52,879 nt of DNA from IMG/VR virus record IMGVR_UViG_3300001868_000225, positions 1-52,879 of that record. The stretch is one strand, 5' to 3'. The notes under the pieces are model-generated. The model worked only from the letters and a program-made list of their open reading frames with translations, was not told the DNA's origin and did no database searches. A program made the position numbers and the translations under genes. Below, piece after piece: positions 19,953 to 37,107 of the stretch (the stretch's first letter is position 1; each line of letters begins with the position of its first letter). The DNA comes from a virus. Taxonomy: Duplodnaviria; Caudoviricetes.

Positions 19953-19964
19953 TAATAGGAGAGG

Positions 19965-22933: not shown

Positions 22934-23829
22934 CCGGTAATCCCTCCTATAAAAAAGCCATATTGTTCGCCGTCATCGTCGAGAGCAGTAGCATTGTTAA
23001 AAGGCGCTTCATAAGCATTTGACGCATATACCGGGTAAGTATCGAGGTGAGTGCGCAAATAAGCCATAGCATTGCTCAATGCCGAAACATACTTATTGCG
23101 CCAGTAGGATACATCTGCAGTAGGATTGGTAGAACGTTGAAATTGTATTTCTGCTGACCATGCCAGGGCTTGCTGAATAATTGGTTTAACGGCAGTATCA
23201 GTTGCGGCACGAAGTTCGGTAAGAAATTCAGCGCTGAAGATATTGCTGAAATTAGTCAGCTCTTCGAAATTGATATGCCGTTTCAGATCGACAAAGCGCC
23301 TTCGACTACAGTTGATATCAACGAACTGATCATACACGGCTGCCGATGGGATCAGGCTGCCGGTATTGATACACGATTTATTCCAGGCCGTATATTTATC
23401 TGCATGATTCTCCAAAAACAATAATAAGCGGTCGAGGCCGTCGTTGGCGGCCTGGAGACACGAGTCTTTCAAATCGCGTACCCGGTCCATGCTGGCCGGA
23501 GCCTGGTTGGGGTTGCTGACAATGCCAAAACCGAAGCCGGTAGCCACAAGATTGAACTGTGGAATACTTTCAAGTATGGTCAGGTTGGCCAGAACCGGTT
23601 TTAAAGCATTGATTAAGCGATCTATATCTTCAGCGTCCGGATCCAGTTCTGAATTTGCCGAATCTTCCAGCGGAGTCCCAAAATCATAGATACTTTCAAC
23701 TAAAATATCACCCAGGTATTTGGGCAAATATTTGTACAAAGCCCTGATCTCGAATGCTTCGTATTTCGAGATGTCGTTGATTGAATTCAGCGGCAGATGT
23801 GTTTTTATATCTTCTATTGTAAGTATCAT
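22930..23829 (-). CDS. Head-tail adaptor-like protein (DUF6712-like)
   Basis: Directly downstream of portal; GFGIVSNPNQAPASMDRV motif. Confidence 0.55.
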   Translation of the reverse strand: MILTIEDIKTHLPLNSINDISKYEAFEIRALYKYLPKYLGDILVESIYDFGTPLEDSANSELDPDAEDIDRLINALKPVLANLTILESIPQFNLVATGFGFGIVSNPNQAPASMDRVRDLKDSCLQAANDGLDRLLLFLENHADKYTAWNKSCINTGSLIPSAAVYDQFVDINCSRRRFVDLKRHINFEELTNFSNIFSAEFLTELRAATDTAVKPIIQQALAWSAEIQFQRSTNPTADVSYWRNKYVSALSNAMAYLRTHLDTYPVYASNAYEAPFNNATALDDDGEQYGFFIGGITG

Positions 23830-25244
23830 TTGAGTGGTTCGTTTACTTTGGTTACACTTCCGGTCTTATTGTTATCGAGCGTGGTAAGCTCCAGGTTAGG
23901 GATCACAAAGTGAAGATCGGCAGGCCACTTGTTAATCGACTTAATGAGGTAGAGCGGTCGAAGGATGCGGTCGCGGAATGGTTTCATCAATGCCTGTTTA
24001 ATGATGAAAAGCTCACGGGCTTCAGTACCATTGATGGTTTTGTTCTTGCCTGGTGGCGGACCAACCAATGCGGGCTGGGTCATCATGGCATAAGCGATAA
24101 GGTTCGATACTTCTTCCGAATCTTCGATGTAAGCGCCATCTTTCATCTCGTTTTTCACTACATCAATCTTAATCATGGGATATGGCTGACCGGCAGGGTC
24201 TTTTTTCTGAAAGGTAATAATCGATTTTCCACTATTTTCATTCCCCTTAATGAAGTCGTTGATGTCTTTATATTCCTTCTTCATTCGGGCCTTTTGTTCT
24301 TTGTCTCCGGTAATGCTCTCGCGTCGGAATATTTCCTTGAAATAATCAGGATCGAGCAGTATGATGTAATTGATCAATGCCTGATTTCGCATGATGGCAT
24401 CCTTAAATGGAAGTATTTTCATGGCAAAATCGTATAATCCACCCTCAAAAATGGCATACCAATACGGCTTCTGATAATAATTTCGCCCGGGTGAAGGGAA
24501 ATTTACCGGAACAATGAAACGGTTACGGCGGGCTTTCACCGGTTTTTTCAGATCTTCGGTCATCGCTTCGCGCAGATGGCGCAAAGGAGTGTGATGATCG
24601 AGTACATTGGTGGCCGTACATGGATATTTTTCGCAGGGTTGATATACGCCCCAATAAGCAAAATAGTAATGCCATTCGATGCGCCCGTTTTCCGGATTCA
24701 TCTCACTCCAGCGCGAAAATGAAGCTTCTTTGCTGCGAAGTTCAACAATCTTGCGCTTGTCACCATCCTCGCCATTGAATATGATTTCGGGATAACAGTT
24801 AAAAAACCAATGCATATCGGTCATTTGCTCAAGCAAATATAATTGCATATCATTCTCTTCAAAAAAGCGGTCAATTTCATCATTCCCGGTATAGGGTTCA
24901 ATTTTTTTGTTTTCACCTTCGCCGGTAATCTTCACCGGTTTGATGCCGTCACCATAACTTAACAGCACGTTAAACCAAAGATTGGCATTCATTTGTGCCA
25001 GTTTGCCTGATTTTTCGATGATTTTATTGGGCAAATCGTTGTTAGCGCCCCATGGTACCATTCGTGGCATTGTTTCTTTATCATGACCCTTCACTGTAAT
25101 GTTGGCCGGTTCCCGATCAGGTACTCCAAATATATTCGAGGTGTCGGTCGTTTGCAGAAAAACAGCGGAAGTACCCGGTGAATAAGCGGTAGTCCCATCG
25201 TGATGCATGATTATTTCTTCCTTGATTTTTTCTATCTGTGTCAT
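23826..25244 (-). CDS. Portal protein
   Basis: 472 aa; PWGANNDLP, YYQKPYW, GNENSGK, PALVG, GTEARE motifs typical of portals. Confidence 0.7.
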   Translation of the reverse strand: MTQIEKIKEEIIMHHDGTTAYSPGTSAVFLQTTDTSNIFGVPDREPANITVKGHDKETMPRMVPWGANNDLPNKIIEKSGKLAQMNANLWFNVLLSYGDGIKPVKITGEGENKKIEPYTGNDEIDRFFEENDMQLYLLEQMTDMHWFFNCYPEIIFNGEDGDKRKIVELRSKEASFSRWSEMNPENGRIEWHYYFAYWGVYQPCEKYPCTATNVLDHHTPLRHLREAMTEDLKKPVKARRNRFIVPVNFPSPGRNYYQKPYWYAIFEGGLYDFAMKILPFKDAIMRNQALINYIILLDPDYFKEIFRRESITGDKEQKARMKKEYKDINDFIKGNENSGKSIITFQKKDPAGQPYPMIKIDVVKNEMKDGAYIEDSEEVSNLIAYAMMTQPALVGPPPGKNKTINGTEARELFIIKQALMKPFRDRILRPLYLIKSINKWPADLHFVIPNLELTTLDNNKTGSVTKVNEPLK

Positions 25245-25558
25245 ATCATTACCTCCATACCATTAACATTAAAAAGCAGCTGGGCATGAACTGTGCGTAC
25301 CTCGCCACTTTCAGGATATTTAAAATTGAATGTGTCGTTTTTGAAATTTGATGATGTGCAAATCACACGGGCGTTGACGACCGTTCCGTCTTTTTCGCCA
25401 TAAACGATATCAAATGGCAACCGCTCGATACTACGGTCGAACGGATCCAGAAGATGCCGGAGAGCTTTGAGGAATATTTGTTTTAAAGCCCCACCCCGTC
25501 CCTCCCCAGAAGGGAGGGAGAAAGAACGGATGCTATTAATTGAACTATTATTGTCCAT
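25241..25558 (-). CDS. Phage hypothetical protein upstream of portal
   Basis: C-terminal VICTSS..TFNFKYPESGEVRTV..LFNVNGMEV; N-terminus contains a translated REP. Confidence 0.65.
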   Translation of the reverse strand: MDNNSSINSIRSFSLPSGEGRGGALKQIFLKALRHLLDPFDRSIERLPFDIVYGEKDGTVVNARVICTSSNFKNDTFNFKYPESGEVRTVHAQLLFNVNGMEVMI

Positions 25559-25594
25559 ATCCGATAAATTGAAAGGTTACTGATGTTTATATTT

Positions 25595-25629
25595 CAAATA
25601 TCGGAGATAGGTGACAGGAAGGAAAGGAC
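25595..25629 (-). promoter_or_regulatory. Late-promoter motif copy 5 (portal/head-tail operon)
   Basis: GTCCTTT-N20-GATATTTG. Confidence 0.7.
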
Positions 25630-25753
25630 AAAAAAAGTATTCAGTCTCAGTGTTCAGTCTCAGTGGGGTTGCTTTCTGCTTCGTTCCTCGCAGTTCGCAA
25701 TGACGGTTTTTAAGTCTTCCCGGTTTTACCGGGAGGAGATTTAGAGGGGGCTT

Positions 25754-25909
25754 TTAATTGTCTTGGGGAGTGAGGAGTTTTTCGAGTTTGCGGATGCGTT
25801 TCTTTATTTTAAGGAGTTGGTTTTTGGCCTGGTCGAATTGAACCCGTGCAGCTTCTTCGAGCTGACGGAGTTCAATGAGTTCTTGACGGATGTCGGTTGT
25901 GTGTATCAT
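25754..25909 (-). CDS. 51-aa coiled-coil protein
   Basis: MIHTTDIRQELIELRQLEE...; starts at the foot of a long hairpin. Confidence 0.55.
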   Translation of the reverse strand: MIHTTDIRQELIELRQLEEAARVQFDQAKNQLLKIKKRIRKLEKLLTPQDN

Positions 25910-26052
25910 AAAAGCCCCTCCCATCTTAATTTGCACAACACTACCCCCAAGGATAAATGTATATAAGACAGAAAGGGCCAAAGTGTGACCCGATCTGTCC
26001 TTGAGGGAATAATGGATAAAAGTGTTGTGCGGTGTAAAGATAGGGAAAAGTT
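25910..26052 (-). promoter_or_regulatory. Long-hairpin leader element, family C
   Basis: Pairings CCCATCTT/AAGATAGGG, GCACAACACT/AGTGTTGTGC, CCCCAAGGA/TCCTTGAGGG, GGGCCA/TGACCC. Confidence 0.6.
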
Positions 26053-26079
26053 TAGCAAATAGAAAAAGCCCCGAAGGGC

Positions 26080-26844
26080 TTAAAATAAAGTGAGCTGCTG
26101 GACTTCGACAGGCTCAGTCACCGATGTTGCACTGAGCAAATCGTCGAGAAGATCCGTTTGTTCGGAAGTAACCGGAATTGTTATGGTTTTTGGTTTTTGC
26201 GTCACAGTTTCCGGCATTTTCAGCACAATTACGCTTTCGGCTTCGGTGATGGGTACAATGTAAGGACCTAATCCGGTTGGATGAATCTGTACCTGCCAGG
26301 CGCCGTAAAATTGGTTGCTGAGTGAGTTCATCCAGGCAACTTCGCCAAACATTCCATTCAGACACATATTGATCAGGCACATCATGGCACAGTTACGGTC
26401 GATATCGGCTCCGTAGAATGTGGCATTTCGGTTGATCTTCGCGGCTGCCATTAGAATTCGTCCACTTCCGCAGGCGCAATCCAGCACACGGGATCCAGTT
26501 TCGATTGGGTTGGTTATTCGTGCCATCATTTCACAGATCGGTTCCGGAGTGAAGAACTGGCCATTGTGTCCAAAACTGATATGCTCCATGAAGAAATCGC
26601 CAAACACATCACGTAATCCTTCGCCGTGGTTATCCATTTCACAGACCAGTGCGCCAAACGCTTCAGCCATCAGGTAGGCTTCGGGTTTATCGTACCGTCG
26701 CACTATTTCAAGGTACCGGTCTTCCATGGCCCCCAGCGATAGTGCACAAACTGCCATTTCTAAAAAGTCGCTGAATACGTTTGAGATGCTGTTCCGACGC
26801 GCTAACTGCTGCATGTACTGGGCAAAGCTTTTTTGTTTTTCCAT
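26080..26844 (-). CDS. HsdM/N6-adenine methyltransferase-like protein lacking motif IV
   Basis: GQFFTP and VLDCACGSGRIL (motif I) present; no NPPY/F; terminator at 26063-26081. Confidence 0.8.
   Translation of the reverse strand: MEKQKSFAQYMQQLARRNSISNVFSDFLEMAVCALSLGAMEDRYLEIVRRYDKPEAYLMAEAFGALVCEMDNHGEGLRDVFGDFFMEHISFGHNGQFFTPEPICEMMARITNPIETGSRVLDCACGSGRILMAAAKINRNATFYGADIDRNCAMMCLINMCLNGMFGEVAWMNSLSNQFYGAWQVQIHPTGLGPYIVPITEAESVIVLKMPETVTQKPKTITIPVTSEQTDLLDDLLSATSVTEPVEVQQLTLF
26103..26124. repeat. REP family 3 (CTTCGACAnGCTCAG and variants)
   Basis: Copies at ~17468, 26103, 26858, 29792, 46092, 49974, 50028 (inverted), 50277. Confidence 0.75.
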
Positions 26845-27056
26845 TAGAGAGCCCTCCCTTCGACTGCTTCGCGCTCAGGGAGCGTTGGAACGATTGTCAT
26901 TCTGCCATTCTCGACTGTGACATGTACGGTTTGGTGTGGCTGAAACCCGGCTGCGGCTAACCAGTTTCCTTTGAGTGTTAGTTTTGGCACCTGGTGGTAA
27001 TTGTCCTGGTACTTACCTTTTACATACTCGGGTTGAAGCTTAATTACTTTTGTCAT
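26844..27056 (-). CDS. SymE-like (AbrB-fold) protein
   Basis: VPKLTLKGNWLAAAGFQPHQTVHVTVENGRMTI matches the SymE P.L.L.G.WL..AGF signature; stop overlaps the MTase ATG. Confidence 0.8.
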   Translation of the reverse strand: MTKVIKLQPEYVKGKYQDNYHQVPKLTLKGNWLAAAGFQPHQTVHVTVENGRMTIVPTLPEREAVEGRAL

Positions 27057-27064
27057 TCGTTGCA

Positions 27065-27337
27065 CCACTGCCCTGTGGATTTATGTAGGCTGGCTCTCCT
27101 GTTAATTTTGAGCCAACTAAAATTGAGCAGACCGGAATTGGTCAAGGGCGAATGTCAGGTTTTTGCATGGGAAGGCAGGTATGTTGACAGATCCCGAAAC
27201 AAGTTCGGGATGACGGAGCAAAAAGGTGACCGAGTGTGAAGCAAGCTTTTCATTTCCCTTCCGGAAGGAGAAAAGCTCCCTTTACTTTTCCGGGATGCGA
27301 TCAATAACTTCGGGGCAAAATTGAGTGAGAGTAGTCT
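27065..27337 (-). promoter_or_regulatory. Long-hairpin leader element, family A copy 1
   Basis: Shares GTCAAGGGCGAATGTCA, GTGACC..GAAGC and CCCTTTACTTTTCCGG..GCGATCAATAACTTC with 33810 and 34649; REP-like hairpin inserted at 27188-27216. Confidence 0.75.
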
Positions 27338-27406
27338 TTCTATGATTTACGATTAGCCTATTTACTATTTACAATTTGGGCAAAAAAAAGAGGCGTGAGC
27401 CTCTTC

Positions 27407-27754
27407 TTAATTATCAATTACAAATGATGTCATATTTGGCGCTGATCTAAGTTTTACTTTATGAATCATCCACGGTTGAAGTAGTTTTGGATAATCCCTA
27501 TGAAATAAAACAACTTCCATTTGATAATTTGGAATGACTTCGATGTCACGAAAATAAAATTTTCCTTCAGGAGATCTATAGGGCCATATTCCTAAAGCTC
27601 TTTTGTGACCTTCAACCAATAGATCAATAAAAACCTGTGGGGCAGAAATTTTAATATGGCTTCTGTCTATGTAAGTTAATTGTTTCAATTCAGGATCACA
27701 ATCTTTAAAGATGCGTTCAACCAATTCAAACGCCTGTTTTTCCAAAGTTTCCAT
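27407..27754 (-). CDS. Hypothetical protein
   Basis: 115-aa ORF, last of the 29240-27407 operon; terminator at 27381-27405. Confidence 0.65.
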   Translation of the reverse strand: METLEKQAFELVERIFKDCDPELKQLTYIDRSHIKISAPQVFIDLLVEGHKRALGIWPYRSPEGKFYFRDIEVIPNYQMEVVLFHRDYPKLLQPWMIHKVKLRSAPNMTSFVIDN

Positions 27755-27772
27755 AACTCAAATTTTAAATTA

Positions 27773-28027
27773 TTAAGGATAAACGTCTGAACCGATAAGG
27801 GTTTGAATCATACGCTGTGACCCTGGTAAATCCTGCATCATTGCTATAACTTCTTCTTTTGATAGATATGCTTTGAATTTGAAATCACAGGATTCAACTT
27901 CATTAAATGGTGTTTTCATCTTATACGAAAGAAACTCCACATCAAACTTTGTAATAAAACCGATAATGTCAGCATGACATTCAGCCGTGAATGAGAATTT
28001 TTGTAGTTTAATATCCATCTTCTTCAA
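27773..28027 (-). CDS. Hypothetical protein
   Basis: FSFTAECHADI...MIQTL; tight operon packing. Confidence 0.6.
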   Translation of the reverse strand: MKKMDIKLQKFSFTAECHADIIGFITKFDVEFLSYKMKTPFNEVESCDFKFKAYLSKEEVIAMMQDLPGSQRMIQTLIGSDVYP

Positions 28028-28036
28028 TTTTTATGG

Positions 28037-28282
28037 TTAAACTGAATTCAAGGCCTTACCTAGCAATTTCGATGCTTGAATAAATTCATCGACAGTAAAC
28101 CCGCAATTCTGAAATCGTTTTTGAGCATTAACGATGCCATTACTGATTTCTTCGTCGGACATATCGGATAAATCAAAGCCCATGAATGCAAATTCAGACC
28201 TGATACTTTTTAAGATCGACTTTACTTCTGATGGTTTACCTGGGAACAACCAATTCCAAAATGTTTTAAATGGATTTTTCAT
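28037..28282 (-). CDS. Hypothetical protein (MKNPFKTFWNWL start)
   Basis: Operon packing; N-terminus shared with 28569-28877. Confidence 0.65.
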   Translation of the reverse strand: MKNPFKTFWNWLFPGKPSEVKSILKSIRSEFAFMGFDLSDMSDEEISNGIVNAQKRFQNCGFTVDEFIQASKLLGKALNSV

Positions 28283-28285
28283 CTT

Positions 28286-28615
28286 TTACTTAAATAATTT
28301 GAGCCTCTTAGTTGTTTTTTTGAGCGAAATTTCAATTTGTTCAAAGGCTTTGCTTTGGCCAATTGAGATAAAATAATCATTTATTTTTTTGAAGGATTCT
28401 GCAACTGCAACCGTGAGTTGTTGTATTGCTTTATCGCGTTTCCATGCCGCAAAACCGACTGAGCGCTCAAATATTTTTTTAAATCTTTGAGCATCTTCCG
28501 GAGTGAGTGTTTCGAATGGTGGATCTAACGGCTGTTTGAATTGTTCGTTATAGTATTGGGCAAGTTGGTTATTTTCCATCTTCAGCAATTTTAGATATAA
28601 ACTCATTTCCTTCAA
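28286..28615 (-). CDS. Hypothetical protein
   Basis: Helical ORF; true start may be MENNQL near 28579. Confidence 0.6.
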   Translation of the reverse strand: MKEMSLYLKLLKMENNQLAQYYNEQFKQPLDPPFETLTPEDAQRFKKIFERSVGFAAWKRDKAIQQLTVAVAESFKKINDYFISIGQSKAFEQIEISLKKTTKRLKLFK

Positions 28616-28877
28616 ATAATGTAACTGCTACCCGTGAAGGATCAAACATTCCCTCCATAGCAGCAACAACACATTTGTAACTTTTTTCTTTAACTATATG
28701 TGTTTGCTCAGCTTCTTTTGAGTTTTTGTCGAAACCTGAATATACTTTAATTATATTAATCATTGGCTGAAGTTCTTCAACGGTATATGGTGTTTTAATT
28801 GCCAGTTCTTCGGCAAGGCATGATGGATAATTTTTGTTTAATAACCAATTCCAATATGTTTTAAATGGATTTTTCAT
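28569..28877 (-). CDS. Hypothetical protein (MKNPFKTYWNWL start)
   Basis: Operon packing; paralogous N-terminus. Confidence 0.6.
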   Translation of the reverse strand: MKNPFKTYWNWLLNKNYPSCLAEELAIKTPYTVEELQPMINIIKVYSGFDKNSKEAEQTHIVKEKSYKCVVAAMEGMFDPSRVAVTLFEGNEFISKIAEDGK

Positions 28878-29046
28878 CTTCTTCGATTTTAATTTTTAAT
28901 CCGAGTGGTTTTAGTAATGCTGAAAGTTTATCCAGGTAAAAAGCTACACGGCGTTTGCCATGGTTTTTAGGAAGGCCTGCGGCACGCTCGTAAGCTGGCC
29001 AGCCTTTGAACTTTTGCTTGATGTAGGTTTCTATGAGGTTGAGCAT
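28861..29046 (-). CDS. Small basic protein, possibly HTH regulator
   Basis: AYERAAGLP...LDKLSALLKPLGLKIKI resembles XRE-type HTH. Confidence 0.5.
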   Translation of the reverse strand: MLNLIETYIKQKFKGWPAYERAAGLPKNHGKRRVAFYLDKLSALLKPLGLKIKIEEDEKSI

Positions 29047-29060
29047 AGTGGTTTTTATTC

Positions 29061-29240
29061 TTATCCAATTTCATACCTAATAATTAATTCACCGACAATG
29101 TCTTCTATTCCAAGTTTTTCAGAACCATCATTACCAATAAACCACCATTTACCATCTTCATCATACTCAGCAATAATCCATTCATTGTCTCGTTTAATCC
29201 AAATCCAGTAGTATCCTGGGATTCTCTTTAATTTTTTCAT
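29061..29240 (-). CDS. 59-aa Trp-rich hypothetical protein
   Basis: MKKLKRIPGYYWIW..EWIIAEY..GKWWFIG. Confidence 0.6.
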   Translation of the reverse strand: MKKLKRIPGYYWIWIKRDNEWIIAEYDEDGKWWFIGNDGSEKLGIEDIVGELIIRYEIG

Positions 29241-29260
29241 GTTCAAATCTACAAAATTCT

Positions 29261-29296
29261 TTTCAAATGTTCGCATATATATGCGAACATTTGAAA
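29261..29296. repeat. Perfect 36-bp palindrome
   Basis: TTTCAAATGTTCGCATATATATGCGAACATTTGAAA equals its own reverse complement. Confidence 0.9.
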
Positions 29297-29311
29297 TATT
29301 TATTAGCAGCA

Positions 29312-29485
29312 TCAACTTGCGATGCTGCTAACAAATTGATTGTACTCGAAGCTGATCAACTCCTGATCGAGAAGTTCTGCAGCTCCTTCGAAGTAAACCG
29401 AATCTAAATAAGTAACGAAGGCTTCCCATAGGTTCTGTCGGTTTTCCTGATCTACTGCGGCTGATTTTAATTTGTAAGTTTTCAT
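29312..29485 (-). CDS. 57-aa acidic protein absent from the ORF track
   Basis: MKTYKLKSAAVDQENRQNLWEAFVTYLDSVYFEGAAELLDQELISFEYNQFVSSIAS; leader hairpin upstream and hairpin TTAGCAGCATC/GATGCTGCTAA over the stop. Confidence 0.65.
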   Translation of the reverse strand: MKTYKLKSAAVDQENRQNLWEAFVTYLDSVYFEGAAELLDQELISFEYNQFVSSIAS

Positions 29486-29491
29486 ACTGTA

Positions 29492-29658
29492 GTTTTGTTA
29501 AAAATTATATGCAGTTTTTCAGGGTCAAAATCAGGGGTAAACAAAGAGGAACTGGAATAACGGATCGAAGTGAGTATATGCCGGGAAAATCCTTGTTTAG
29601 GTATAATCCTTAGCCCTGGATATTGACCGTTTCTTAGCGTGTAATTTTGCTATAAAAC
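29492..29658 (-). promoter_or_regulatory. Long-hairpin leader element, family B copy 1
   Basis: AAAATTATATGC/GCGTGTAATTTT, GGTCAAAATC/GATATTGACC, TAAACAA/TTGTTTA; core GAGGAACTGGAATA..ATATGCCGGGAAAATCC shared with copy 2. Confidence 0.7.
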
Positions 29659-29855
29659 CAGGGATGAAGGCGAAGGCAGTGTTCAGTCGCAGTGTTCAGG
29701 TATAGGTACCAGGGAAAGTGTTCAGTATTCAGTCGCAGTTGGCAGAGGTAGAGTGGAGTATGAGATTGCTTCGTACCTCGCAATGACGGCCTTTCGACAG
29801 GTTCGGGGATCAGGAGCGACATAAAAAAAAGCCTTTCGGCTTTCTTTGGTTTCAG

Positions 29856-30170
29856 TTAAAAGGGAAAGTCATCGTTAGCCGGTTCTTTCTTCGATTTCTT
29901 TTTGGAAGGTTTTTGTGCCTTTTTTTGTTCTTCAGGACCATAAGGCTGTATTGGGATGGCTGCCGAAACTTTGGTCTGATAATAACAGGTGTGGGTGCGT
30001 CCGAATTTGTCGTCTTGTTTCAGTTTAGCCACCTCAAATGAGAGGTACTTTACTCCGTTCTTTTCGAACACTGCTTTTTCGAGGCCTTCAACTGGTAATA
30101 CAATTCTCACGATGTCAAGGTTTTCTACCTGAGTTCCTTTTCCGATGTAATGTTTTTCAAAAGTTGTCAT
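29856..30170 (-). CDS. Hypothetical protein with OB-fold/SSB-like features
   Basis: MTTFEKHYIGKG..KYLSFEVAKLKQDDKFGRTHTCY; ends DDFPF like an SSB tail; terminator at 29823-29844. Confidence 0.7.
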   Translation of the reverse strand: MTTFEKHYIGKGTQVENLDIVRIVLPVEGLEKAVFEKNGVKYLSFEVAKLKQDDKFGRTHTCYYQTKVSAAIPIQPYGPEEQKKAQKPSKKKSKKEPANDDFPF

Positions 30171-30350
30171 AATATTGAATTTAAGGTTATAAAAAAAATT
30201 TATACCGGGTGAGAATATTCTGAATGAGGGTGGCAATGGAGGAACTGGAATACCGGAACGTAGCGAGGATATGCCGGGAAAATCCATTGACGGGTTCCTT
30301 CCTTGAAAGAATACACCTTTGTAGATAATTTTTGACTAACGCTCAATATT
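30171..30350 (-). promoter_or_regulatory. Long-hairpin leader element, family B copy 2
   Basis: AATATTGA/TCAATATT, GGTG/CACC, TATTCT/AGAATA, CAATGGA/TCCATTG; base abuts ATG 30170. Confidence 0.7.
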
Positions 30351-30478
30351 CTGTCAACCGTAGAAAATTTGCACCGGCGAAAGGTTACCTAGGTAAACCG
30401 GGAGATTGGGATAGTATTGTTGCCAGGTGAAGCCCTGATCGTGTTCGGTAGAATATCGGTGAAGTAACCATTGAGGCT

Positions 30479-30681
30479 GTGCTAACGAAATGAAGATGAC
30501 CGGCAACCCACGTTAATCGGACCATGGTGGCGACATCAACAGCATGGTGGCCGGAACAAAAACACAAAAGTAACGAACAAGCATCCCGAAAGATGGCCTT
30601 ACGAACTGAAACCAAATGCCGAAAGGCTTTTAGGGGAGCACGGTGCATGGGGCAAAGGGCATGGAGCTTCAGTGTTAGCGC
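30479..30681 (+). other. attC-like hairpin, left boundary of ibrAB cassette
   Basis: GTGCTAAC...GTTAGCGC ends; inner pairings TGAAG/CTTCA, ATGACC/GGGCAT, CCCACG/CATGGG. Confidence 0.5.
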
Positions 30682-30864
30682 CTATTTAACTGGCAGCGTG
30701 ACAATCCAGTCGGCGACAATATTAATGAGCGTTTCAATTTTTTCTTTGTGAACATCTGACACGCGATCACGGGTAATTGACGAGCGATCACTTGCAAGGG
30801 TGCGGCTCAATTCAGCCCAATTTAGTAAGGCTTTTGCTTTAATTTTAGCTTCTTCTTGGTTCAT
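30682..30864 (-). CDS. Small HTH-like protein
   Basis: LLNWAELSRTLASDRSSI; last gene of the ibrAB operon. Confidence 0.6.
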   Translation of the reverse strand: MNQEEAKIKAKALLNWAELSRTLASDRSSITRDRVSDVHKEKIETLINIVADWIVTLPVK

Positions 30865-31379
30865 TTTTCAACCTCCCATGCTTCAGAAAATTCTTCATCC
30901 ATAAATAATTCTGCAAGTCCTGTTATTTGCTTAAGCCTTAATACTTCATCTGCATCCATACCAAGTTCTTTAGCAATTTTTTCATCATTCCAATTTCGGC
31001 GACTTAATTCAACGACTATGTCGCTCATCGCTTGTATTTGATGTTTTCCCCTTGCCCTATTGTGTCTAATAGTTGAAGCAATCCTGTCGCCCTTTTCAGT
31101 TCTGTCATTATTTATAATTACACACGGAAGATGGGTAAATCCAAGTTTTTTACCTACCAAATGGCGATGAAATCCATCAATAACTTCATATCTATCTTCA
31201 ATTTTCCACACAACAATTGGTTGTGTATATCCATCCTCTTGAATTGATAATTCAAGTAATTTCATTTCTGGCGGAGCTACCTTATTGGGATTATAATCAT
31301 TCCCTTGTATTAATTCAATAGATATCCACTTAACGAATGAAACTGGATGTGTTTGTGTCCATTTTAAAATATTCTCCAT
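30861..31379 (-). CDS. ibrB: IbrB/YbdM-like ParB/Srx-domain protein
   Basis: NDYNPNKVAPPEMKLL..GYTQPIV..IDGFHR..STIRHNRARGKH..LGMDADEVLRLKQITG. Confidence 0.88.
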   Translation of the reverse strand: MENILKWTQTHPVSFVKWISIELIQGNDYNPNKVAPPEMKLLELSIQEDGYTQPIVVWKIEDRYEVIDGFHRHLVGKKLGFTHLPCVIINNDRTEKGDRIASTIRHNRARGKHQIQAMSDIVVELSRRNWNDEKIAKELGMDADEVLRLKQITGLAELFMDEEFSEAWEVEK

Positions 31380-32566
31380 TGTTGCCTCCTATTTTTCATT
31401 ACTTTCAAATATCTTTCGTATGATTCAGCTTTTGTCTGAGTAAAAGAAAGCCCTTTACACCAATAATCATTTCTTAATAATGCCTTGCAAATTCTTCTCC
31501 ATGATGGAACTTTTTTATGAGCTTCTTCGTCCAGTGTTGCTTCGTCAGGTATATCATTCGAATAACCTCTATCTATATACCATTTTATAAAAATGCTTAT
31601 TTTGTTTTCAAAATGTAGTTTTGTCTTTTGTGGCATAGAATTTAACAATAGCATAGCAAATGATTTCCATGTATGTCCATCTGGCTTTTGAATTTTTAAC
31701 ATACCATTAATATTACCGTGTTCGCCATTAAATAAAGCCCCTGAATTCGCTCCATTAACCCTGGCTACAATTTTACCCCATGTTTCAGGCTCAATAATAT
31801 GAAACAACCACAATCCACGACGTTGATCATCTCCATAAGGTTGGCAAATTCTTTGCTGATGAATAGAAACCCCTGCCTTATACATTAAGTCGTAAAGCTT
31901 ATTATATGGCTTTAAAAACCTGCCATTATATCGCCAAATATCCTGAGTTTTCCAATCATAAATAGGATACGCATTATAAACTGATTCACCGCACCAAGTA
32001 GTCCAAGATTTATCTTCAAACTTTGATTTACTCATTGCTAGTGTTCTATATCTGTTTAGGCTTTCGTCTGATCTAATACCAACAAAACAAGCTGTTAACT
32101 TCCCTTTTGAATACCAATCTCCAAATTTTGGAACAAATTCTTCAAACTCCATTCCACTATGAAAAAATGGAAAGTCTTCATTTGTTTTAACACCATTTGG
32201 CATTTCACGAATCCATATTTCTTTCTTTGTTCTATCCCATGCCAACCACTTTGGTTGGAACGTAGAAACTGCATTTCTAAGAGCAATCTCAACACAACAC
32301 CAAAAAGGCTCTATATTATCAGCATACATTGCAAACATTTCTTTTATATGCTCGATAGTTATTTTATATTGTCCTTCAAGGTCAACAAATAAAACACCAA
32401 CCATTCTATTTCTTTTTTTTGCTTCGTCCATAACTAAATGAAGCATAACAGAACTATCCTTGCCGCCTGAAAATGAAACATATATTTTTGGAAACGAATC
32501 AAAAATATACGAAATCCTTTGTTTTGCAGCCATTAATACATCAATTCCAAGCGATCTTTTAGGCAT
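31364..32566 (-). CDS. ibrA: IbrA/YbdN-like PAPS-reductase-domain protein (DUF3440)
   Basis: PP-loop SFSGGKDS; GIRSDESLNR; YPIYDW; QRICQPYG; PSWRRICK.LLRND.WCK.LSF. Confidence 0.9.
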   Translation of the reverse strand: MPKRSLGIDVLMAAKQRISYIFDSFPKIYVSFSGGKDSSVMLHLVMDEAKKRNRMVGVLFVDLEGQYKITIEHIKEMFAMYADNIEPFWCCVEIALRNAVSTFQPKWLAWDRTKKEIWIREMPNGVKTNEDFPFFHSGMEFEEFVPKFGDWYSKGKLTACFVGIRSDESLNRYRTLAMSKSKFEDKSWTTWCGESVYNAYPIYDWKTQDIWRYNGRFLKPYNKLYDLMYKAGVSIHQQRICQPYGDDQRRGLWLFHIIEPETWGKIVARVNGANSGALFNGEHGNINGMLKIQKPDGHTWKSFAMLLLNSMPQKTKLHFENKISIFIKWYIDRGYSNDIPDEATLDEEAHKKVPSWRRICKALLRNDYWCKGLSFTQTKAESYERYLKVMKNRRQQWRIF

Positions 32567-32946
32567 TTGTTAACTTGTTCTTTATTAATTTTAATAATAT
32601 CACCGTTTTCATTTATAAAACAAAAGTATCTATCTGTTTTAGACCATGAAATGGGTTCTTTAACTTCATAAATTTTGTTAGTTTCAAGAATATAATAAGC
32701 AAATATTCCTCTACTTCCTTTGCTGTTAGAATGTCTGTAATCTTTTTTGTATCTAATAAAATTCCTTTCAAAATTGAACTTTGGATGTAACCCTATAATT
32801 TCAGCCACAAAGAAACTTAATGGAATATTTCCGAATATATTTTCTGTCAATTGTTCTCCAATCATTGTAGTTGAACCGGATTTCCAAAATTTAAGAAATT
32901 GAGTGTCATTGTCGCCAATGCACTCAATTTTTAAAGTCGCTTTCAT
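32533..32946 (-). CDS. Hypothetical protein upstream of ibrA
   Basis: Co-oriented, overlaps the ibrA start; DYRHSNSKGSRG motif. Confidence 0.7.
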   Translation of the reverse strand: MKATLKIECIGDNDTQFLKFWKSGSTTMIGEQLTENIFGNIPLSFFVAEIIGLHPKFNFERNFIRYKKDYRHSNSKGSRGIFAYYILETNKIYEVKEPISWSKTDRYFCFINENGDIIKINKEQVNKCLKDRLELMY

Positions 32947-32947
32947 T

Positions 32948-33160
32948 TTAAAATTCACCATTTTGAGCTTTAAAATCTTCTATTTGGCGTTCAAAACTAA
33001 AAACTTGGTTTTGTGCTTGTTGTTTTGCATTTTCAAGTTTTTCTAATTCATTGTAATAAAACCATTCTTCTGCGCTTAATACTTCTGGCTTTGAAATAAC
33101 TATTTGTCCTTCATTTTCAATAGCTTCAATTACTGATTTGATTTCGTTGTAAGTTTTCAT
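32948..33160 (-). CDS. 70-aa acidic/coiled-coil protein
   Basis: First gene of the ibrAB operon; start MKTYNEIK. Confidence 0.6.
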   Translation of the reverse strand: MKTYNEIKSVIEAIENEGQIVISKPEVLSAEEWFYYNELEKLENAKQQAQNQVFSFERQIEDFKAQNGEF

Positions 33161-33196
33161 TTTGTGGTTTTTTAGTATTTTTGTATACACCGAAGA

Positions 33197-33255
33197 TACA
33201 ACATTTGTTGTATTACTTTCAAATGTTTTAACACTTATTTACAATAATCGTTGTA
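33197..33255. promoter_or_regulatory. Twin palindromic operators TACAA-N6-TTGTA of the ibrAB operon
   Basis: TACAACATTTGTTGTA (33197-33212) and TACAATAATCGTTGTA (33240-33255). Confidence 0.6.
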
Positions 33256-33294
33256 ATTTATTTTGATTCTAAATAAGCAATGGACAAAAACAGG

Positions 33295-33390
33295 CGTTAA
33301 TACGTGCTATACAAAAGCCGGGGCTCGGTGCTTCGTTGACAAAGAATTATTTCAAAATCCCGGCCTTCTCATAGCACCATCCGGTTGACG
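33295..33390 (+). other. attC-like hairpin, right boundary of ibrAB cassette
   Basis: CGTTAAT...GTTGACG ends; GTGCTAT/ATAGCAC and GCCGGG/CCCGGC inner stems. Confidence 0.55.
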
Positions 33391-33422
33391 AACAAAAAAA
33401 GGGGCGTTAGCCCCTCTTTAAG

Positions 33423-33800
33423 TCAAAGGTTGATCAGTTCTTCAACGTCGTGCACTTTCACATCCAGTGTCCGTTTCATTTCGTCGATCACTGAGCTGAT
33501 CACTGCCGAGTTTGAGGTTTTGAACTCGTTGCCGTTAGCATCCCTCAAACTGATGACAGAACTCAGCGAATCGGCCCCGATCTGGAAGGTCTGCAACTTC
33601 CGGCGCGAATCGTTCAATGTTTTCCACCTGTCAATCAGCATCGACAAATCTTCCACCCGCTGGATCCGTTCTTCGAGGGTCATTTTACGAGCTGCTTCTT
33701 CAACTACGTCTTTCACAACTGTCATAGTTGGAATAACTTCTACCACTTCAACAACTTCAGCAACATTGACTGCTTTCTCTGCATTATTTGATTTACCCAT
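33423..33800 (-). CDS. Hypothetical coiled-coil protein
   Basis: 125 aa; family A leader upstream; terminator AGGGGC-gtta-GCCCCT at 33394-33416. Confidence 0.75.
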   Translation of the reverse strand: MGKSNNAEKAVNVAEVVEVVEVIPTMTVVKDVVEEAARKMTLEERIQRVEDLSMLIDRWKTLNDSRRKLQTFQIGADSLSSVISLRDANGNEFKTSNSAVISSVIDEMKRTLDVKVHDVEELINL

Positions 33801-33809
33801 AACATTTTG

Positions 33810-34078
33810 CCGCTGCCCTGCGGACTTATTTTGGCATCTGGCTCAGCCGGTTAAAATTAAATTACGGGTAGTATCCATTGAGCCGGGCGGAATCTAGTCA
33901 AGGGCGAATGTCAAGTTTTAACGGAGACCGGAGCCGGAAGACCGAAGACGGAAGTTAAAAGTGACCGAGTGCGAAGCAAGGCTTAGTTCTGACTAAACTG
34001 CTAAACCAAACCACTAAACCTCCCTTTACTTTTCCGGACGGCGATCAATAACTTCATCCGGAATTTGAGTGTAACAAG
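33810..34078 (-). promoter_or_regulatory. Long-hairpin leader element, family A copy 2
   Basis: Same conserved blocks as copies 1 and 3, with compensatory changes. Confidence 0.75.
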
Positions 34079-34153
34079 AATTTCTCTGTCAAACTCCGGA
34101 AAGCCTGGTGACTTTTAAAGAGCGACCAAAAAAAGGGGCGATAGCCCCTTGAA

Positions 34154-34639
34154 TTACTGAATGAAATTTTCCTGATTGCCAAACTTCGATTCAACCTTTT
34201 CCGATCCCCAGGCATCACGCATAGCATCCATCGACATCAATTTGCCCGACTTCTTATGATACTCCCCTTTGTGCCAGTACCAGGCAGCTTTCGGATGTGA
34301 GAAGCGGTAACCTTCACTTTTCAGCGTTTCCCGGAGTGCGAATGTGTTTCCGGTAATCCAGATCCACGAGCCAATAAGTTCGATAACAATCCCTGGTAAG
34401 CAGATGATCCGGTCCAGCCGTTCACGCATTTCTTCTGAAACCTGCTGCTCATATTCCTTCCGTGCTTCCGAAAAATCAGTATTGCTGTTGATCAGCTTTC
34501 TTGAAAGCCGGTCATACAGATCGTTGATCATCTGCATAGTTGCAGTATCACCACCTTTATCCGGATGATACAGAAAAGCAAGGCGACGGTATTCCTTGCG
34601 CAATTCATCCAACGTCTTAACATCCTCGAAAAATTTCAT
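34154..34639 (-). CDS. Truncated J-domain (DnaJ-like) protein
   Basis: LDELRKEYRRLAFLYHPDKGGD with HPD motif; C-terminal IELIGSWIWITG..LKSEGYRF..AWYWH domain; terminator at 34128-34150. Confidence 0.85.
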   Translation of the reverse strand: MKFFEDVKTLDELRKEYRRLAFLYHPDKGGDTATMQMINDLYDRLSRKLINSNTDFSEARKEYEQQVSEEMRERLDRIICLPGIVIELIGSWIWITGNTFALRETLKSEGYRFSHPKAAWYWHKGEYHKKSGKLMSMDAMRDAWGSEKVESKFGNQENFIQ

Positions 34640-34648
34640 GTGAGTTCA

Positions 34649-34867
34649 CCGCTGCCCTGCGGATTTATGTAGGCTGGCTCTCCTGTTAATTTTGAGCCAA
34701 CTACCCATTGAGCAGACCGGATTCTAGTCAAGGGCGAATGTCAGTTTCGAGGCACGCAGAAAGTGACCAAGCGCGAAGCGTTGTTTATGCAAATCACATC
34801 CGGCAAACACAAACCCTTTACTTTTCCGGGATGCGATCAATAACTTCGGGGCAAAATTGTAGGAGAG
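34649..34867 (-). promoter_or_regulatory. Long-hairpin leader element, family A copy 3
   Basis: CTCTCCTG/TAGGAGAG, AATTTTG/CAAAATT, ATTGA/TCAAT, CCGGA/TCCGG, AAGGG/CCCTT. Confidence 0.75.
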
Positions 34868-35445
34868 ATAATACCTCTCTGCCTGAATAGGCGCTTAGTT
34901 GGCATTCTCTTTTGGTTCTTTTCTCTGATGCCTTGCCTGCAAATCCAGAGAAAAGAACTGCGCAAAATTTTCAGGCCGTAGGTGGTCCCTGAAAATTCAG
35001 ACGTTTGTATAACGGATGGCGCAAGGTTCTTTTTGCCCGCTTTTTCTTACAAGAAAAAGCGTAGAGGAAATCTTGTGCTTGGAATCATTCTAAATAATAT
35101 TGATTTTCCCATCAAAAAAACATCAAAAACCTAAAAATCAAGCAATCGGATTCAAAAGGGATATGCAATTCTTCCTTTTGTCTGAAAAAGACCCCGAACC
35201 GCCCTGTTCGTCTTTTGTGCTCACAAGGTCAAAAATGGCGTTATATGCTGAAAGTTTCATATATTATGTATAGTGGATACTCTATCCAAAAACCCATCGC
35301 ACGGACGAAGGTAGTGCGATACCGAATGTGTGTGAAAGCAAAAAACAGGTGAATGCGAAGCACATTCTCCTGTTGCGGGTAGTGGAACAATCATTCAGAA
35401 TTGAATGAAAGGATGGAATGAAATTTTGAATGTTTGTGTATCGGG

Positions 35446-37107
35446 CTATTGGTTAAACACCGTTGACATTGGTAATGATGTGACTTGTCTTGGAAAGAAG
35501 TTCAATCCGATAAACAGATCGTCCCAGGCATCAGTTCCATCCGTGCGGAGTTCGAGTGGATCATCTTCGGTCTCTCCAAGTTTCTCACCGGCTTTGTCCT
35601 TTTCGAAACCTGTACGACCCATCCGGATCCCGCACATCTCCATGGATGGAAGGAGTGCAGGATTGTTTGCCCGGTTAAACTTTGGGAACAAATACTTGCG
35701 TCCCTTCAGTGCATCATCTATAACTTGATGCTTTACCTTATGTGTCCAGGTGTTGCCTATGTAGACAGGTTCAACGTTCCATCCACGTCGCGACAGTTCT
35801 TCGACAACTATCTCCTGGAAGTTGGGAGCGTCTTCATCAGCATAAGCGCCATCGAGTGCAGTGGAGTTATAATAGTAGATCACTTCCTTGTTACGGATAT
35901 ACTGATAGTAGTCGCACCAGTTGCGACACAGTTCCCTAAGCTTATGGTTGAACTTTACAAACTTACTCGATAGGGTCTTCATCACCGGCTCGAGTCGTTG
36001 TCCTGTTATGACCCAGTTGATGTTGGCATTGTAGTCGAATGCAATGGCAAGCGGTACCGATGGATCTATATCTCCATCTTTAAGGCAATTGTCCTCTGAT
36101 ATTCGATCAAGGTCAAGCGTTCCTTTTACTGTTCTGAGGTTATCAATATAGGTCGTATTGTCTGCATCGTAATAGTGTATCTCTGGTTGAAGATTCGGAT
36201 AGAACCCATCAGTTAACTTCCTGATTCGTTTATTCATAATCGATGTCTGGAATATGACCGGGGGTAAAATCAACTTCTGTCGTTTAATGTAGTCAACTCC
36301 AACAATTTCAAGGTTTTCAATGGTATCATATTCTTTATACAGAAATGCGTTTTTTCTCAGGAAGAATAGTTCTTCCCTTAAGTGTTGTATTTGCCGTATG
36401 GCATTTACCGGCATTTCGGGCATAGCGCTATACTTATCTCTCAGGTAATTGATGTGGGAAATTGTATTTTCAATGGCCATGATGAGTTCCGGATCCATAT
36501 TTTTTTCCTGATCAAGTATCCACTGACCTTCCTTGCTGGTTGGCATATCTGATACCATGGTCAATCCTTTCCATTTATGGCATTTTTCAAATATAGGATC
36601 GGTACCCGACATGGTTGGAACTACCTCTTCAAATAGTTTTTCCTTATTGATCGACCTGCCTTCATCTATTTTTCCCCAGTCAGTAGTCAACGAGTTTGCC
36701 GAAAACTTTACATCCTGGCTCAGCAAATAAACACAGGTACCATTATAGAAATGAATGGCCTGATCCCAGCTGACCGGTTCAACTGTTGGAAGTGCAAAGT
36801 TCATCCATTTGGGTGCTTTTCGACCAACAAAATAATGAACATCGCGCTGATATCCGTATCGTTTCAGGAAAGTAAGGGTTGCCGGCAGTGTTTTACCAAG
36901 TAACTGTTTGAAGTTGCGCTGGTAAAGAAAACCAGATGATGCGGGCATATTCTGAATATCGTATAATAAATCAGGTCCTTCTACACCATCAGACTTTCCG
37001 AAACGACGGGATCCAACAATACATTTGCTGTTTGGGCTTATTTCGTGCACATACATTTGTGCTTTATTGAAATAGGCCGGTTTACATGCTGATCTACTTA
37101 ATATCAT
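35446..37107 (-). CDS. terL: Terminase large subunit
   Basis: Walker A GSRRFGKS; Walker B GKIDEG; nuclease acidic residues AFDYN and TDGTDAWDD. Confidence 0.88.
   Translation of the reverse strand: MILSRSACKPAYFNKAQMYVHEISPNSKCIVGSRRFGKSDGVEGPDLLYDIQNMPASSGFLYQRNFKQLLGKTLPATLTFLKRYGYQRDVHYFVGRKAPKWMNFALPTVEPVSWDQAIHFYNGTCVYLLSQDVKFSANSLTTDWGKIDEGRSINKEKLFEEVVPTMSGTDPIFEKCHKWKGLTMVSDMPTSKEGQWILDQEKNMDPELIMAIENTISHINYLRDKYSAMPEMPVNAIRQIQHLREELFFLRKNAFLYKEYDTIENLEIVGVDYIKRQKLILPPVIFQTSIMNKRIRKLTDGFYPNLQPEIHYYDADNTTYIDNLRTVKGTLDLDRISEDNCLKDGDIDPSVPLAIAFDYNANINWVITGQRLEPVMKTLSSKFVKFNHKLRELCRNWCDYYQYIRNKEVIYYYNSTALDGAYADEDAPNFQEIVVEELSRRGWNVEPVYIGNTWTHKVKHQVIDDALKGRKYLFPKFNRANNPALLPSMEMCGIRMGRTGFEKDKAGEKLGETEDDPLELRTDGTDAWDDLFIGLNFFPRQVTSLPMSTVFNQ

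Follow-up and report, generated by a model that had tools for sequence, protein, structure and literature searches.

Between the terminase and portal genes of the virus record IMGVR_UViG_3300001868_000225 (52,879 bp, analysed whole and called the window below), the genome of a temperate tailed phage, lies an accessory island in which three copies of one repeated element, family A, each stand directly before a small gene. We favour, at a probability of roughly 0.55 and on evidence drawn from sequence comparison, the reading that these elements are single-strand DNA hairpin promoters, which would play in Bacteroidota the part that Frpo/ssi play on F and IncI1 plasmids. Three kinds of evidence carry this reading: covariation between the two arms of the hairpin, a host-type promoter box with a conserved mismatch bubble on the arm of the template strand, and the genes and mobile elements in whose company family A is found.

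Fold, putative promoter box and strand preference of family A

The window copies A1, A2 and A3 (Table 1) align across ~250 nt, with conserved blocks flanking a variable middle (direct-repeat search and alignment), and when the 5′ side is aligned to the reverse complement of the 3′ side the whole element forms one long imperfect hairpin of ~250 nt, spanning from ~75 nt upstream of a GT(C/A)AAGGG block to a conserved GCC.A.ATAA block near the start codon. The apex ranges from 18 to 170 nt and tolerates insertions, and a small 3′ hairpin, P4 (CCGC-AGGGCA-GCGG), in A1–A3 ends 4–11 nt before the next ATG and 9–11 nt before the start codon of the open reading frame (ORF). The first-pass annotation of the window had drawn these same three copies as long imperfect hairpins, as they prove to be, and the ‘CAAGG/CCTT’ pair it noted at the base of the apical region is, in family A, the GTAAAGGG/CCCTTGAC upper stem. 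Folded singly, A1–A3 have z-scores of -1.0, -0.2 and -2.4, such that the hairpins are not demonstrable from the window alone; these single-sequence scores are weak, and we draw the support for the fold from comparison.

The comparison used 64 representatives, less than 85% identical on the arms, and a conservative structure of 47 pairs set by majority. Paired cells make up 80.4% of this structure, against 75.1% after shuffling (none of 500 shuffles reaches the observed value) and 30–40% when the partner is slid, and cells in which both partners have changed number 174 against 63 in the shuffles. Such double changes fall at 22 of the 47 pairs, as where ATTGA/TCAAT has become CAGAG/CTCTG in locus L052. 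P4 is 97.7% paired with double changes at all four of its pairs, and in A3 it reads CCAC..GTGG, a compensatory change relative to A1 and A2. With pairing and double changes both beating both controls, the long hairpin passes the covariation check as a real fold, although the sequences are interrelated and neither these counts nor the Wilcoxon p-values are independent tests. RNAalifold, run on eight sequences and then on 72 arm alignments, recovered the structure in part only. At the gathering threshold Rfam finds nothing in the window but a tRNA, and at E <= 1 the stretch 25000–36000 yields a chance MicF match alone (28 bits, where the gathering score is 79); the family A elements thus match no Rfam covariance model.

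Conservation in the 5′ arm is highest in CAAAGTTA, whose opposite strand, TAACTTTG, fits TAnnTTTG; the upper-stem block reads CCCTTGAC on this box strand, with TTG 19–22 nt upstream of the box, the expected site of a -33 element (TTTG/TTG). TAnnTTTG/TTTG is the -7/-33 consensus of the primary sigma factor of Bacteroidota, sigma-ABfr, as given in parts of two published accounts (PMC2483708, PMC7366714). Read on the template strand, the loop-distal arm is 5′-CCCTTG(or T)AC, 19–22 nt, TAnnTTTG. The pattern used to scan bacterial genomes (see below) had fixed four of the six box letters, which biases the resulting set of 72 elements, 48 of them with the exact box; we therefore redid the test on IMG/VR with a pattern confined to the 3′ arm. 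From 100 loci, 53 matches without a 5′-arm partner within 200 nt were dropped and 39 unique copies were kept, one of which is an evident chance match. Antisense to the 5′ arm, TAnnTTTG is exact in 31 of these copies, with TTG or TTT 19–22 nt upstream, and has one mismatch in six, two in one and four in one; at the mirror position on the sense strand of the 3′ arm none of the 39 has fewer than two mismatches. The exact antisense box is present in 50 of the 64 representatives. The free positions of the box vary (AC, CC, TC, AA, CA) and T, A, T, T, T and G are held. Across the window itself, exact TAnnTTTG occurs at chance frequency (28 and 25 per strand, against 30.7 and 22.75 in shuffles), and the window alone could therefore not reveal the promoter box.

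Within the box, the first T is Watson–Crick paired in 60 of the 64 representatives, but positions 2–4 (A, n, n) are so paired in only 4, 6 and 5 of them, against 60–64 for their neighbours; beyond this bubble, TTTG and some 15–40 further positions are paired again. The opposite columns (387–389) are variable, and what is conserved is the 3-nt bubble itself. It is open on the antisense strand, where none of its three positions does better than A.C, whereas G.T pairs could form at many of them on the sense strand. An ordinary duplex promoter firing away from the gene, with the inverted repeat serving another end such as protein binding, would have its box and TTG intact in duplex DNA too, and might yield a short RNA, antisense or divergent, or else serve to insulate the preceding cassette or keep it silent. 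Upstream of A3, for example, a terminator hairpin is followed by a T-rich stretch on the other strand, where a short RNA could end. We consider this decidedly unlikely, as nothing is conserved in that direction, the previous terminator is mostly 30–100 nt off, and the conserved bubble and a covarying stem of more than 100 nt would be left unexplained.

Of the two strands, the antisense one folds at lower energy in 60 of the 72 elements with RNA parameters and in 63 with DNA parameters; with the latter, the strands of the 64 representatives differ by 3.66 kcal/mol, where dinucleotide-shuffled sequences and their complements differ by 1.54, and the gap is larger than in the shuffles in 49 of 64. 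When the arms are aligned symmetrically, 498 transition mismatches would be G.T on the antisense strand and 310 on the sense strand, and taken element by element 54 lean to antisense, eight to sense and 10 are equal. Wobbles outside the box pairs of the 47-pair structure number 112 on the antisense strand and 50 on the sense strand, and a hand tally of the lower stem gives 352 and 146, respectively. Taken together, the strand evidence leans to the template strand, although these counts too come from interrelated sequences and none is an independent test.

The same measures bear on a structured 5′ leader RNA, an option that the first-pass annotation had kept beside single-stranded DNA. Such a leader would be transcribed whole, from an unrecognised promoter or by read-through, and could serve mRNA processing, stability, protection from read-through or translational control in the manner of the EGeRS1 elements of pLS20-family plasmids. 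The element abuts the start codon, its orientation is always that of the gene, P4 combines near-complete pairing and double changes at every pair with sense-strand wobbles, and on the sense strand G.U could form at the three box pairs; there is also the precedent of EGeRS1, structured, placed before ardC and, in the part of the account that describes it, without a constitutive promoter (PMC8708921). Yet an exact sense-strand box is found inside none of the 64 representatives and within the 200 nt upstream of only one of 59, a terminator-like T-run stands in that upstream stretch in 46 of the 59, the antisense strand pairs better outside the box and in the lower stem, no Rfam family is matched, and the invariant T-A..TTTG facing variable partners goes unexplained. 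The leader RNA is weakened because no sense-strand promoter was found, and we judge it unlikely for the element as a whole, although P4 does lean to RNA.

Three further features of family A may be recorded here. The variable apices (A3 at 27150–27210, where a small GC hairpin is inserted, and those of L018, L242 and L243) hold small GC-rich hairpins, e.g. ATCCCGAA..TTCGGGAT, that recur in other copies, as if small repeats could settle in the apex without harm. Another exact TAnnTTTG (TAATTTTG) is found antisense in the lower stem of A1 and A3 (34687–34694 and 27103–27110, plus strand) and in 19 of the 64 representatives; no TTG stands at the right distance from it, and it may merely follow from CAAAATTA/CAATTTTG pairing. 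Lastly, a short variant occurs as a second site on two IMG/VR contigs, 3300030047_000019 (L105:360–502, minus strand) and 3300025013_000109 (L121:300–495, minus strand), far from the terL (terminase large subunit) island that these phages also have; it keeps the 5′ arm, box and upper stem of family A but has an apex of 24–25 nt and a different, A/T-rich 3′ tail without P4.

Downstream genes, conjugative transposons and phages

An exact 17-mer of the element occurs in 15 IMG/VR stretches, 10 of them full copies and five unrelated. Relatives of the window’s terL number more than 563 in IMG/VR, and a profile search of the 80 best of these loci placed the element in seven (L016, L018, L020, L024, L044, L052 and L054), some element-bearing loci having a terL only 41% identical to that of the window. 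A scan of IMG/VR with the pattern AAGGG..CCCTTGNC..CTCAAT gave mostly chance matches. Among prokaryotes, scanned at one genome per species, at least 142 stretches matched; 141 loci were fetched and 131 of them confirmed by profile, which puts the element in at least 131 bacterial loci. The fetched loci are nearly all from Prolixibacteraceae (Mariniphaga, Mangrovibacterium, Sunxiuqinia, Draconibacterium, Maribellus and Tangfeifania), and copies occur in Mangrovibacterium lignilyticum BM_7 and Sunxiuqinia indica RC1_OXG_1F. Searches with A2 by blastn found no match among the INPHARED phages or in PLSDB (72,556 plasmid records, F-like plasmids included).

Behind 76 distinct full-length copies, the first gene belongs to one of 11 families. 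A 125-aa coiled-coil family and RadC are jointly the commonest (18 each), followed by ArdC (ArdcN plus zincin domain; 14), J-domain proteins and DUF6573 (seven each), SymE (four), a 69-aa zinc-ribbon protein (three), a 212-aa protein (two) and, once each, a 131-aa protein, a YspA-type SLOG protein and an 85-aa protein.

The setting of these cassettes was surveyed in five bacterial genomes (G001–G005) reached via the fetched loci. Prophages hold five clusters, each 0.6–12 kb downstream of a terL-like gene and sharing its strand (four in G001, one in G005); another five are found at 5–35 kb from a TraG gene (G002 and G003 with one each, G004 with three), and all but one of these have TraG’s orientation; two are unplaced. 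In G001, of which 80 kb were annotated, the terL-like and portal-like genes of a window-type prophage enclose genes for ArdC, an MmeI-type enzyme, a group II intron reverse transcriptase and SymE, and the 40 kb annotated in G002 hold a conjugative transposon with RteC, TraG, TraM, TraN, a coupling protein, a NikA/MobC-like protein and a relaxase, all on the same strand as the hairpin-led genes. Counting the window, five IMG/VR contigs, the four G001 prophages and the G005 prophage, 11 of 12 phage contexts have the cassettes immediately after terL and in its orientation, the exception being L044, where they are inverted. On our reading, cassettes are exchanged between integrative and conjugative elements (ICEs) and phages, and the element marks a route of that exchange.

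Other genes accompany the cassettes in both settings. The G001 prophage island (L359:10360–11754, 13598–16405) encodes the group II intron reverse transcriptase, the MmeI-type restriction-modification enzyme and a hybrid histidine kinase. In the G002 conjugative transposon (L362:2023–8842, 11885–16546), the hairpin-led cassettes have defence-type neighbours, namely two occurrences of AbiEi/AbiEii, an OLD-family ATPase together with a UvrD-like helicase, and DUF4007 accompanied by a PAPS-reductase-like protein and one of 1071 aa.

That the same element heads different genes in phages and ICEs might also suggest recombination modules, either attC-like or crossover points of the PeSL kind that shuffle cassettes, or else sites of priming or single-strand origins. 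In four peat metagenome runs the elements are where contigs end, depth over them being raised ~2- to 5-fold, and Frpo, to go by the title of a 1997 paper by Masai and Arai, reportedly primes DNA synthesis. The metagenome contigs gave no termini and no reliable joints, all joint sides being shorter than 40 nt and at repeats. The attC sites are imperfect single-strand hairpins with unpaired bases, 57–141 nt long, that lie 3′ of their cassettes, carry R and L boxes (GTTRRRY) and need an integron integrase. The likeness to attC seen in the first pass does not extend to family A, whose elements are 250–300 nt long, 2–4 times the length of attC, and stand before genes, not after them, at a fixed distance to the ATG; no integron-type integrase is nearby, the sole integrase of the window being of phage type and beside a tRNA. 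Shuffling may well occur, yet it would leave box and bubble unexplained, and we rate recombination or priming as the element’s role very unlikely. Least credible of all is a selfish repeat without a role for the neighbouring gene, akin to miniature inverted-repeat transposable elements or repetitive extragenic palindromes: the element is multi-copy and the genome has other small intergenic repeats (D4, D6 and D7, below), but orientation and ATG distance are fixed in all copies examined, target duplications and transposon-type terminal inverted repeats are absent, and the element is confined to one functional class of genes.

If family A elements are single-strand promoters, then in duplex DNA the promoter at the box would face away from the gene, into the terminator of the preceding cassette, and in the folded template strand the box arm would pair with the arm that continues into the gene, such that RNA polymerase would read into that gene. 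The fold would mimic a promoter pre-melted at -11 with duplex DNA downstream; transcripts would start ~55–60 nt before the ATG and have a conserved, A-rich leader whose 4-bp hairpin with loop AGGGCA seemingly acts in RNA. A cassette would consist of the hairpin, one or two genes and a terminator, with cargo of an establishment or anti-defence type. For conjugative transposons, the single strand would be supplied by the transferred strand; for phages, the candidate sources are 5′-to-3′ resection, prior to circularisation, of the end at which packaging starts, the lagging-strand template in replication, and hairpin extrusion from supercoiled DNA. As in Frpo-type promoters, a conserved long imperfect inverted repeat is found directly upstream of the gene and, as a matter of sequence geometry, host boxes lie on the template-strand arm and are directed from loop to base. 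The first-pass annotation had proposed a leading-region-like module with Frpo-like hairpins for the whole island; this survives for family A, with its ArdC, RadC and DUF6573 genes in conjugative transposons, its host-type box geometry and its somewhat better fold on the template strand, and falls for families B and C (below).

Several points weigh against the single-strand promoter, in addition to the bias of the genome-scan set. Corrected for composition, the strand preference comes to a modest 2.1 kcal/mol, and the 47-pair structure pairs nearly as well on the sense strand (79.2%) as on the antisense strand (80.4%), because the sense strand can form G.U at the three box pairs, which supply 97 of its 147 wobbles. 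P4 has eight sense wobbles against two antisense, and part of the element would therefore act as RNA. The boxes of the window’s own copies are imperfect (TAACTTCG, TAACTTCA and TAACTTCG in A1, A2 and A3), with TTT and not TTG at -33. The elements lie ~20 kb from the relaxase in G002, the sole annotated ICE, and the sequencing runs that hold the region are peat, soil and groundwater metagenome contigs, with no RNA run among them. Finally, tailed phages deliver double-stranded DNA and no single-strand source was found for them; the element is nevertheless present in phage contexts, namely five clusters in two genomes, the window and seven of the 80 terL-relative loci.

The fixed site by terL, on the terL strand in all but one of the 12 phage contexts, suggests, as a conjecture, a link with the packaging-start end. 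We raise tentatively, and as a rather doubtful proposition, that temperate tailed phages of Prolixibacteraceae use ICE-type single-strand promoters exposed by packaging-end resection. Were packaging to start near terS/terL, the island would be nearest the left end of the first headfuls, and 5′-to-3′ resection, whether by host nucleases or in the strand annealing that circularises terminally redundant DNA, would strip the coding strand and leave the template strand single. The hairpins could then fold, which would allow expression of the ArdC, RadC, SymE and J-domain genes ahead of the genome’s conversion to a duplex circle. If true, nuclease attack or recombination would be what turns expression on, as a switch, and family A would be the first single-strand promoter class made for the Bacteroidota sigma factor. 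A covarying element kept by terL in phages would imply either programmed early exposure of single-stranded DNA or an undescribed hairpin mode, and either would be new.

The accessory island and its other repeats

Nearly all genes of the window are on the minus strand, and the phage has a tRNA and an integrase (Table 1), lysis genes, a tape-measure protein and an S49 prohead protease; the Pfam scan also found a DUF5131 gene and an RNase_T-type exonuclease with a BRCT domain (18259–19146). A HicA/HicB toxin–antitoxin pair (19536–20150) sits amid tail and head genes. Both borders of the island could be matched to annotated proteins by tblastn, which confirms that a block of ~10 kb parts terL from the portal gene: terL is 33.6% identical over 98% to the ‘terminase large subunit’ of Microcystis phage Mea-Yong924-1 (E 1e-82), and the portal is 28% identical over 95% to the ‘portal protein’ of Polaribacter phage Leef_1 (E 2e-44). 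Neither has a match among Pfam, PHROG or PDB sequences (phmmer against PDB sequences included). The island itself (25559–35445) consists of minus-strand genes, with terL on one side and the portal on the other.

Table 1. Family A elements, genes and repeats of the window discussed in the text.
Feature	Position	Strand	Remarks
tRNA	613–686		sole Rfam match at gathering threshold
Integrase	810–1955		tRNA-adjacent phage type; sole integrase in window (Pfam scan)
D4 repeat copies	11485–11516, 13247–13278, 25676–25707, 29759–29790; weak 12158–12189		
Portal protein	23826–25244	-	472 aa; island’s downstream border
‘C’ hairpin	25933–26030	-	~98 nt; upstream of 56–75-aa ORF 25754–25924/25981
MTase-like gene	26080–26844	-	N6_Mtase E 1.5e-13, profile positions 6–117 of 311; then terminator 26081–26066
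SymE-like gene	26844–27056	-	Pfam SymE_toxin E 3e-14
Element A3	27057–27357	-	nhmmer 241.2 bits; upper stem 27285–27278 with 27148–27141; apex 129 nt; P4 27078–27065; SymE-like ATG 27056
A3 antisense -7-like box	27305–27312	+	TAACTTCG
Family B repeat copy 2	29546–29592	-	upstream of 57-aa gene 29312–29485
Small gene with DDFPF tail	ATG 30170, stop 29856	-	
Family B repeat copy 1	30239–30285	-	47 nt; upstream of DDFPF-tail gene
IbrB-like gene	30861–31379	-	ParB_N, Pfam E 4.5e-11
IbrA-like gene	31364–32566	-	PAPS_reduct + DUF3440, Pfam E 2.2e-19 / 1.3e-33
125-aa coiled-coil protein gene	33423–33800	-	phrog_19224 E 5e-6
Element A2	33801–34101	-	nhmmer 247.2 bits; upper stem 34029–34022 with 33904–33897; apex 117 nt; P4 33823–33810; 125-aa gene ATG 33800
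A2 antisense -7-like box	34049–34056	+	TAACTTCA; two mismatches to TAnnTTTG
J-domain protein gene	34154–34639	-	161 aa; Pfam DnaJ E 8.8e-7; phrog_15863 E 2.2e-37
Element A1	34640–34893	-	nhmmer 255.5 bits; upper stem 34821–34814 with 34734–34727; apex 79 nt; P4 34662–34649; J-domain ATG 34639
A1 antisense -7-like box	34841–34848	+	TAACTTCG; one mismatch to TAnnTTTG; TTT 21 nt upstream, same strand
Structured non-coding spacer, terL–A1	34894–35445	-	several local hairpins and palindromes (DNA-parameter fold)
terL, large terminase subunit	35446–37107	-	553 aa; island’s upstream border
DnaG-type primase	47173–50775		Pfam scan

The cargo had been read correctly in the main: an N6_Mtase fragment, a SymE_toxin, a DnaJ domain, ParB_N with PAPS_reduct/DUF3440, and small proteins without known family. 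The MTase-like gene has motif I only, since its match is limited to the first part of the profile (Table 1), and phrog_5696 matches within the SymE-like/MTase-like unit. In the IbrA/IbrB-like pair (30861–32566), a ParB_N protein adjoins a PAPS_reduct + DUF3440 protein (phrog_2159, phrog_2302), and no family A element stands directly ahead of it. The gene credited with an ‘SSB tail’, that of a single-stranded DNA-binding protein, does end in ...DDFPF, but there is nothing more to the claim, as no family is matched; a protein atlas places its product among unnamed clusters only, the nearest named family, DUF736 (0.79), being a mere lead. Terminators, thought usual at the ends of the units, do stand after the J-domain gene (34150–34133), the 125-aa gene (33419–33396), a 115-aa gene and the MTase-like gene, and the terminator scan finds 19 terminator-like sites against 9.9 +/- 3.7 in shuffles. 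The spacer between terL and A1 folds with z-scores of -5.9 (minus strand) and -6.4 (plus strand) against 60 shuffles with DNA parameters.

Six units of one layout, headed by hairpins of three families, had been described in the island, of which the three family A units stand and the others do not. Family B is a 47-nt direct repeat, its two copies 89% identical, with no significant long fold (z -0.5 and -0.2; long versions +0.85 and -1.3) and no homology to family A. The ‘C’ region (25925–26082) does fold as a real hairpin (z -7.6 minus strand, -5.1 plus strand, DNA parameters), but nhmmer finds no match in it to the family A profile, and inspection by eye of the B and C sequences showed no antisense box. 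With B lacking the fold and C unrelated, the six units therefore shrink to three units of one family. In the four peat metagenome runs, contig depth is up ~3- to 4-fold over the family B region (30138–30504 and 29771–30137; e.g. 1058 against 285 in X1), and B and its surroundings are therefore multi-copy in those peat communities too.

Other repeats are scattered through the window. D4, an intergenic repeat of ~32 nt (GATTGCTTCGT.CCTCGCAATGACGG) and itself a small inverted repeat, occurs both inside and outside the island, and short repeats resembling it are common in Bacteroidota genomes. D6 (CCCCACCCC..CCCTCCCC.AAAGGGAGGG) is found at 3820–3869, 13109–13158 and 25471–25520, and D7, runs of ATTTAC.ATTTAC, at 4416–4445, 11450–11479, 21134–21163 and 27345–27374, one of them just upstream of A3. 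A perfect, spacer-free palindrome of 36 bp (18 + 18 nt; 29261–29296) is followed by a 16-nt inverted repeat (29298–29336); the two lie inside or at the start of an 84-aa ORF (29061–29315) and are possibly an operator.

Comparison with known systems

The principle proposed here is known from F and IncI1 plasmids, and family A itself appears to be undescribed. We found no description in print by a full-text search for Frpo with Bacteroid*, judged by titles and the starts of abstracts, and nothing relevant in a further search on leading regions, conjugative transposons, Bacteroides and ArdC, as judged from the listing. Candidates beyond the known plasmids were found elsewhere by similarity to five known sequences or by their sigma-70 boxes, in an account whose main text does not contain ‘Bacteroid’, although its supplementary tables may bear on the point (PMC11541004).

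Closest in layout is EGeRS1, found in the pLS20 family of Bacillus, a repeated, structured element of 325–500 nt that lies directly before ardC and other establishment operons and blocks read-through, and for which no gene-ward duplex promoter was found; its authors, in the part of their account that treats the question, argue against a single-strand promoter, as the fold shows none and the plasmid transfers the non-template strand (PMC8708921). Family A differs in that its fold has a host-type box and its strand evidence leans to the template strand, and the two have no sequence relationship.

Hairpins and repeats of other kinds offer partial parallels. The early promoters of phage N4, a tailed phage with double-stranded DNA, act as extruded DNA hairpins, aided by a single-stranded DNA-binding protein, and have stems of 5–7 bp and 3-nt loops that are read by a virion RNA polymerase. 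In contrast, family A has stems of more than 100 nt, large apical loops and a host-sigma-type box, and the Pfam scan of the window showed no gene resembling a virion RNA polymerase. The single-strand origins (sso) of rolling-circle plasmids are folded single strands with promoter-like boxes read by host RNA polymerase, and yield primers, not mRNAs. Conserved upstream units (CUP) of IncN plasmids are repeated before anti-restriction genes, and the PeSL of T4-type phages are repeated promoter and stem-loop units flanking small accessory genes in plastic regions; both are duplex promoters. We know of no Frpo in tailed temperate phages beside terL.

It is with Frpo/ssi of F and ColIb-P9 (IncI1) that family A has most in common in its proposed action. 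In the Frpo logic, as set out in parts of two accounts, the boxes lie on one arm, the folded strand mimics a duplex promoter, and the leading genes are in template-strand orientation (PMC11541004; also PMC8708921). Family A shares the long imperfect hairpin before genes of establishment or anti-defence type, the boxes on one arm, the proposed reading of genes from the folding strand, and the presence of several copies per element, each heading a cassette. We found no sequence relationship between the two (Rfam; blastn of A2 against PLSDB), and the boxes of family A are those of sigma-ABfr (TTG/TAnnTTTG) where Frpo has those of sigma-70 (TTGACA/TATAAT). The hosts and vehicles of family A are also distinct, being integrative conjugative transposons of Prolixibacteraceae and tailed temperate phages that carry the element by terL. 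It is through single-strand promoters that conjugative plasmids can express anti-defence genes while not yet double-stranded, and such promoters are so far known from enterobacterial plasmids (PMC11541004). Family A would make the establishment of Bacteroidota conjugative transposons directly testable, and would provide a search key for new anti-defence genes, as whatever follows the hairpin becomes a candidate. Set beside Frpo, it would represent a form of single-strand promoter recognisable by sequence in another phylum, with its own promoter grammar and an explicit pre-melted bubble.

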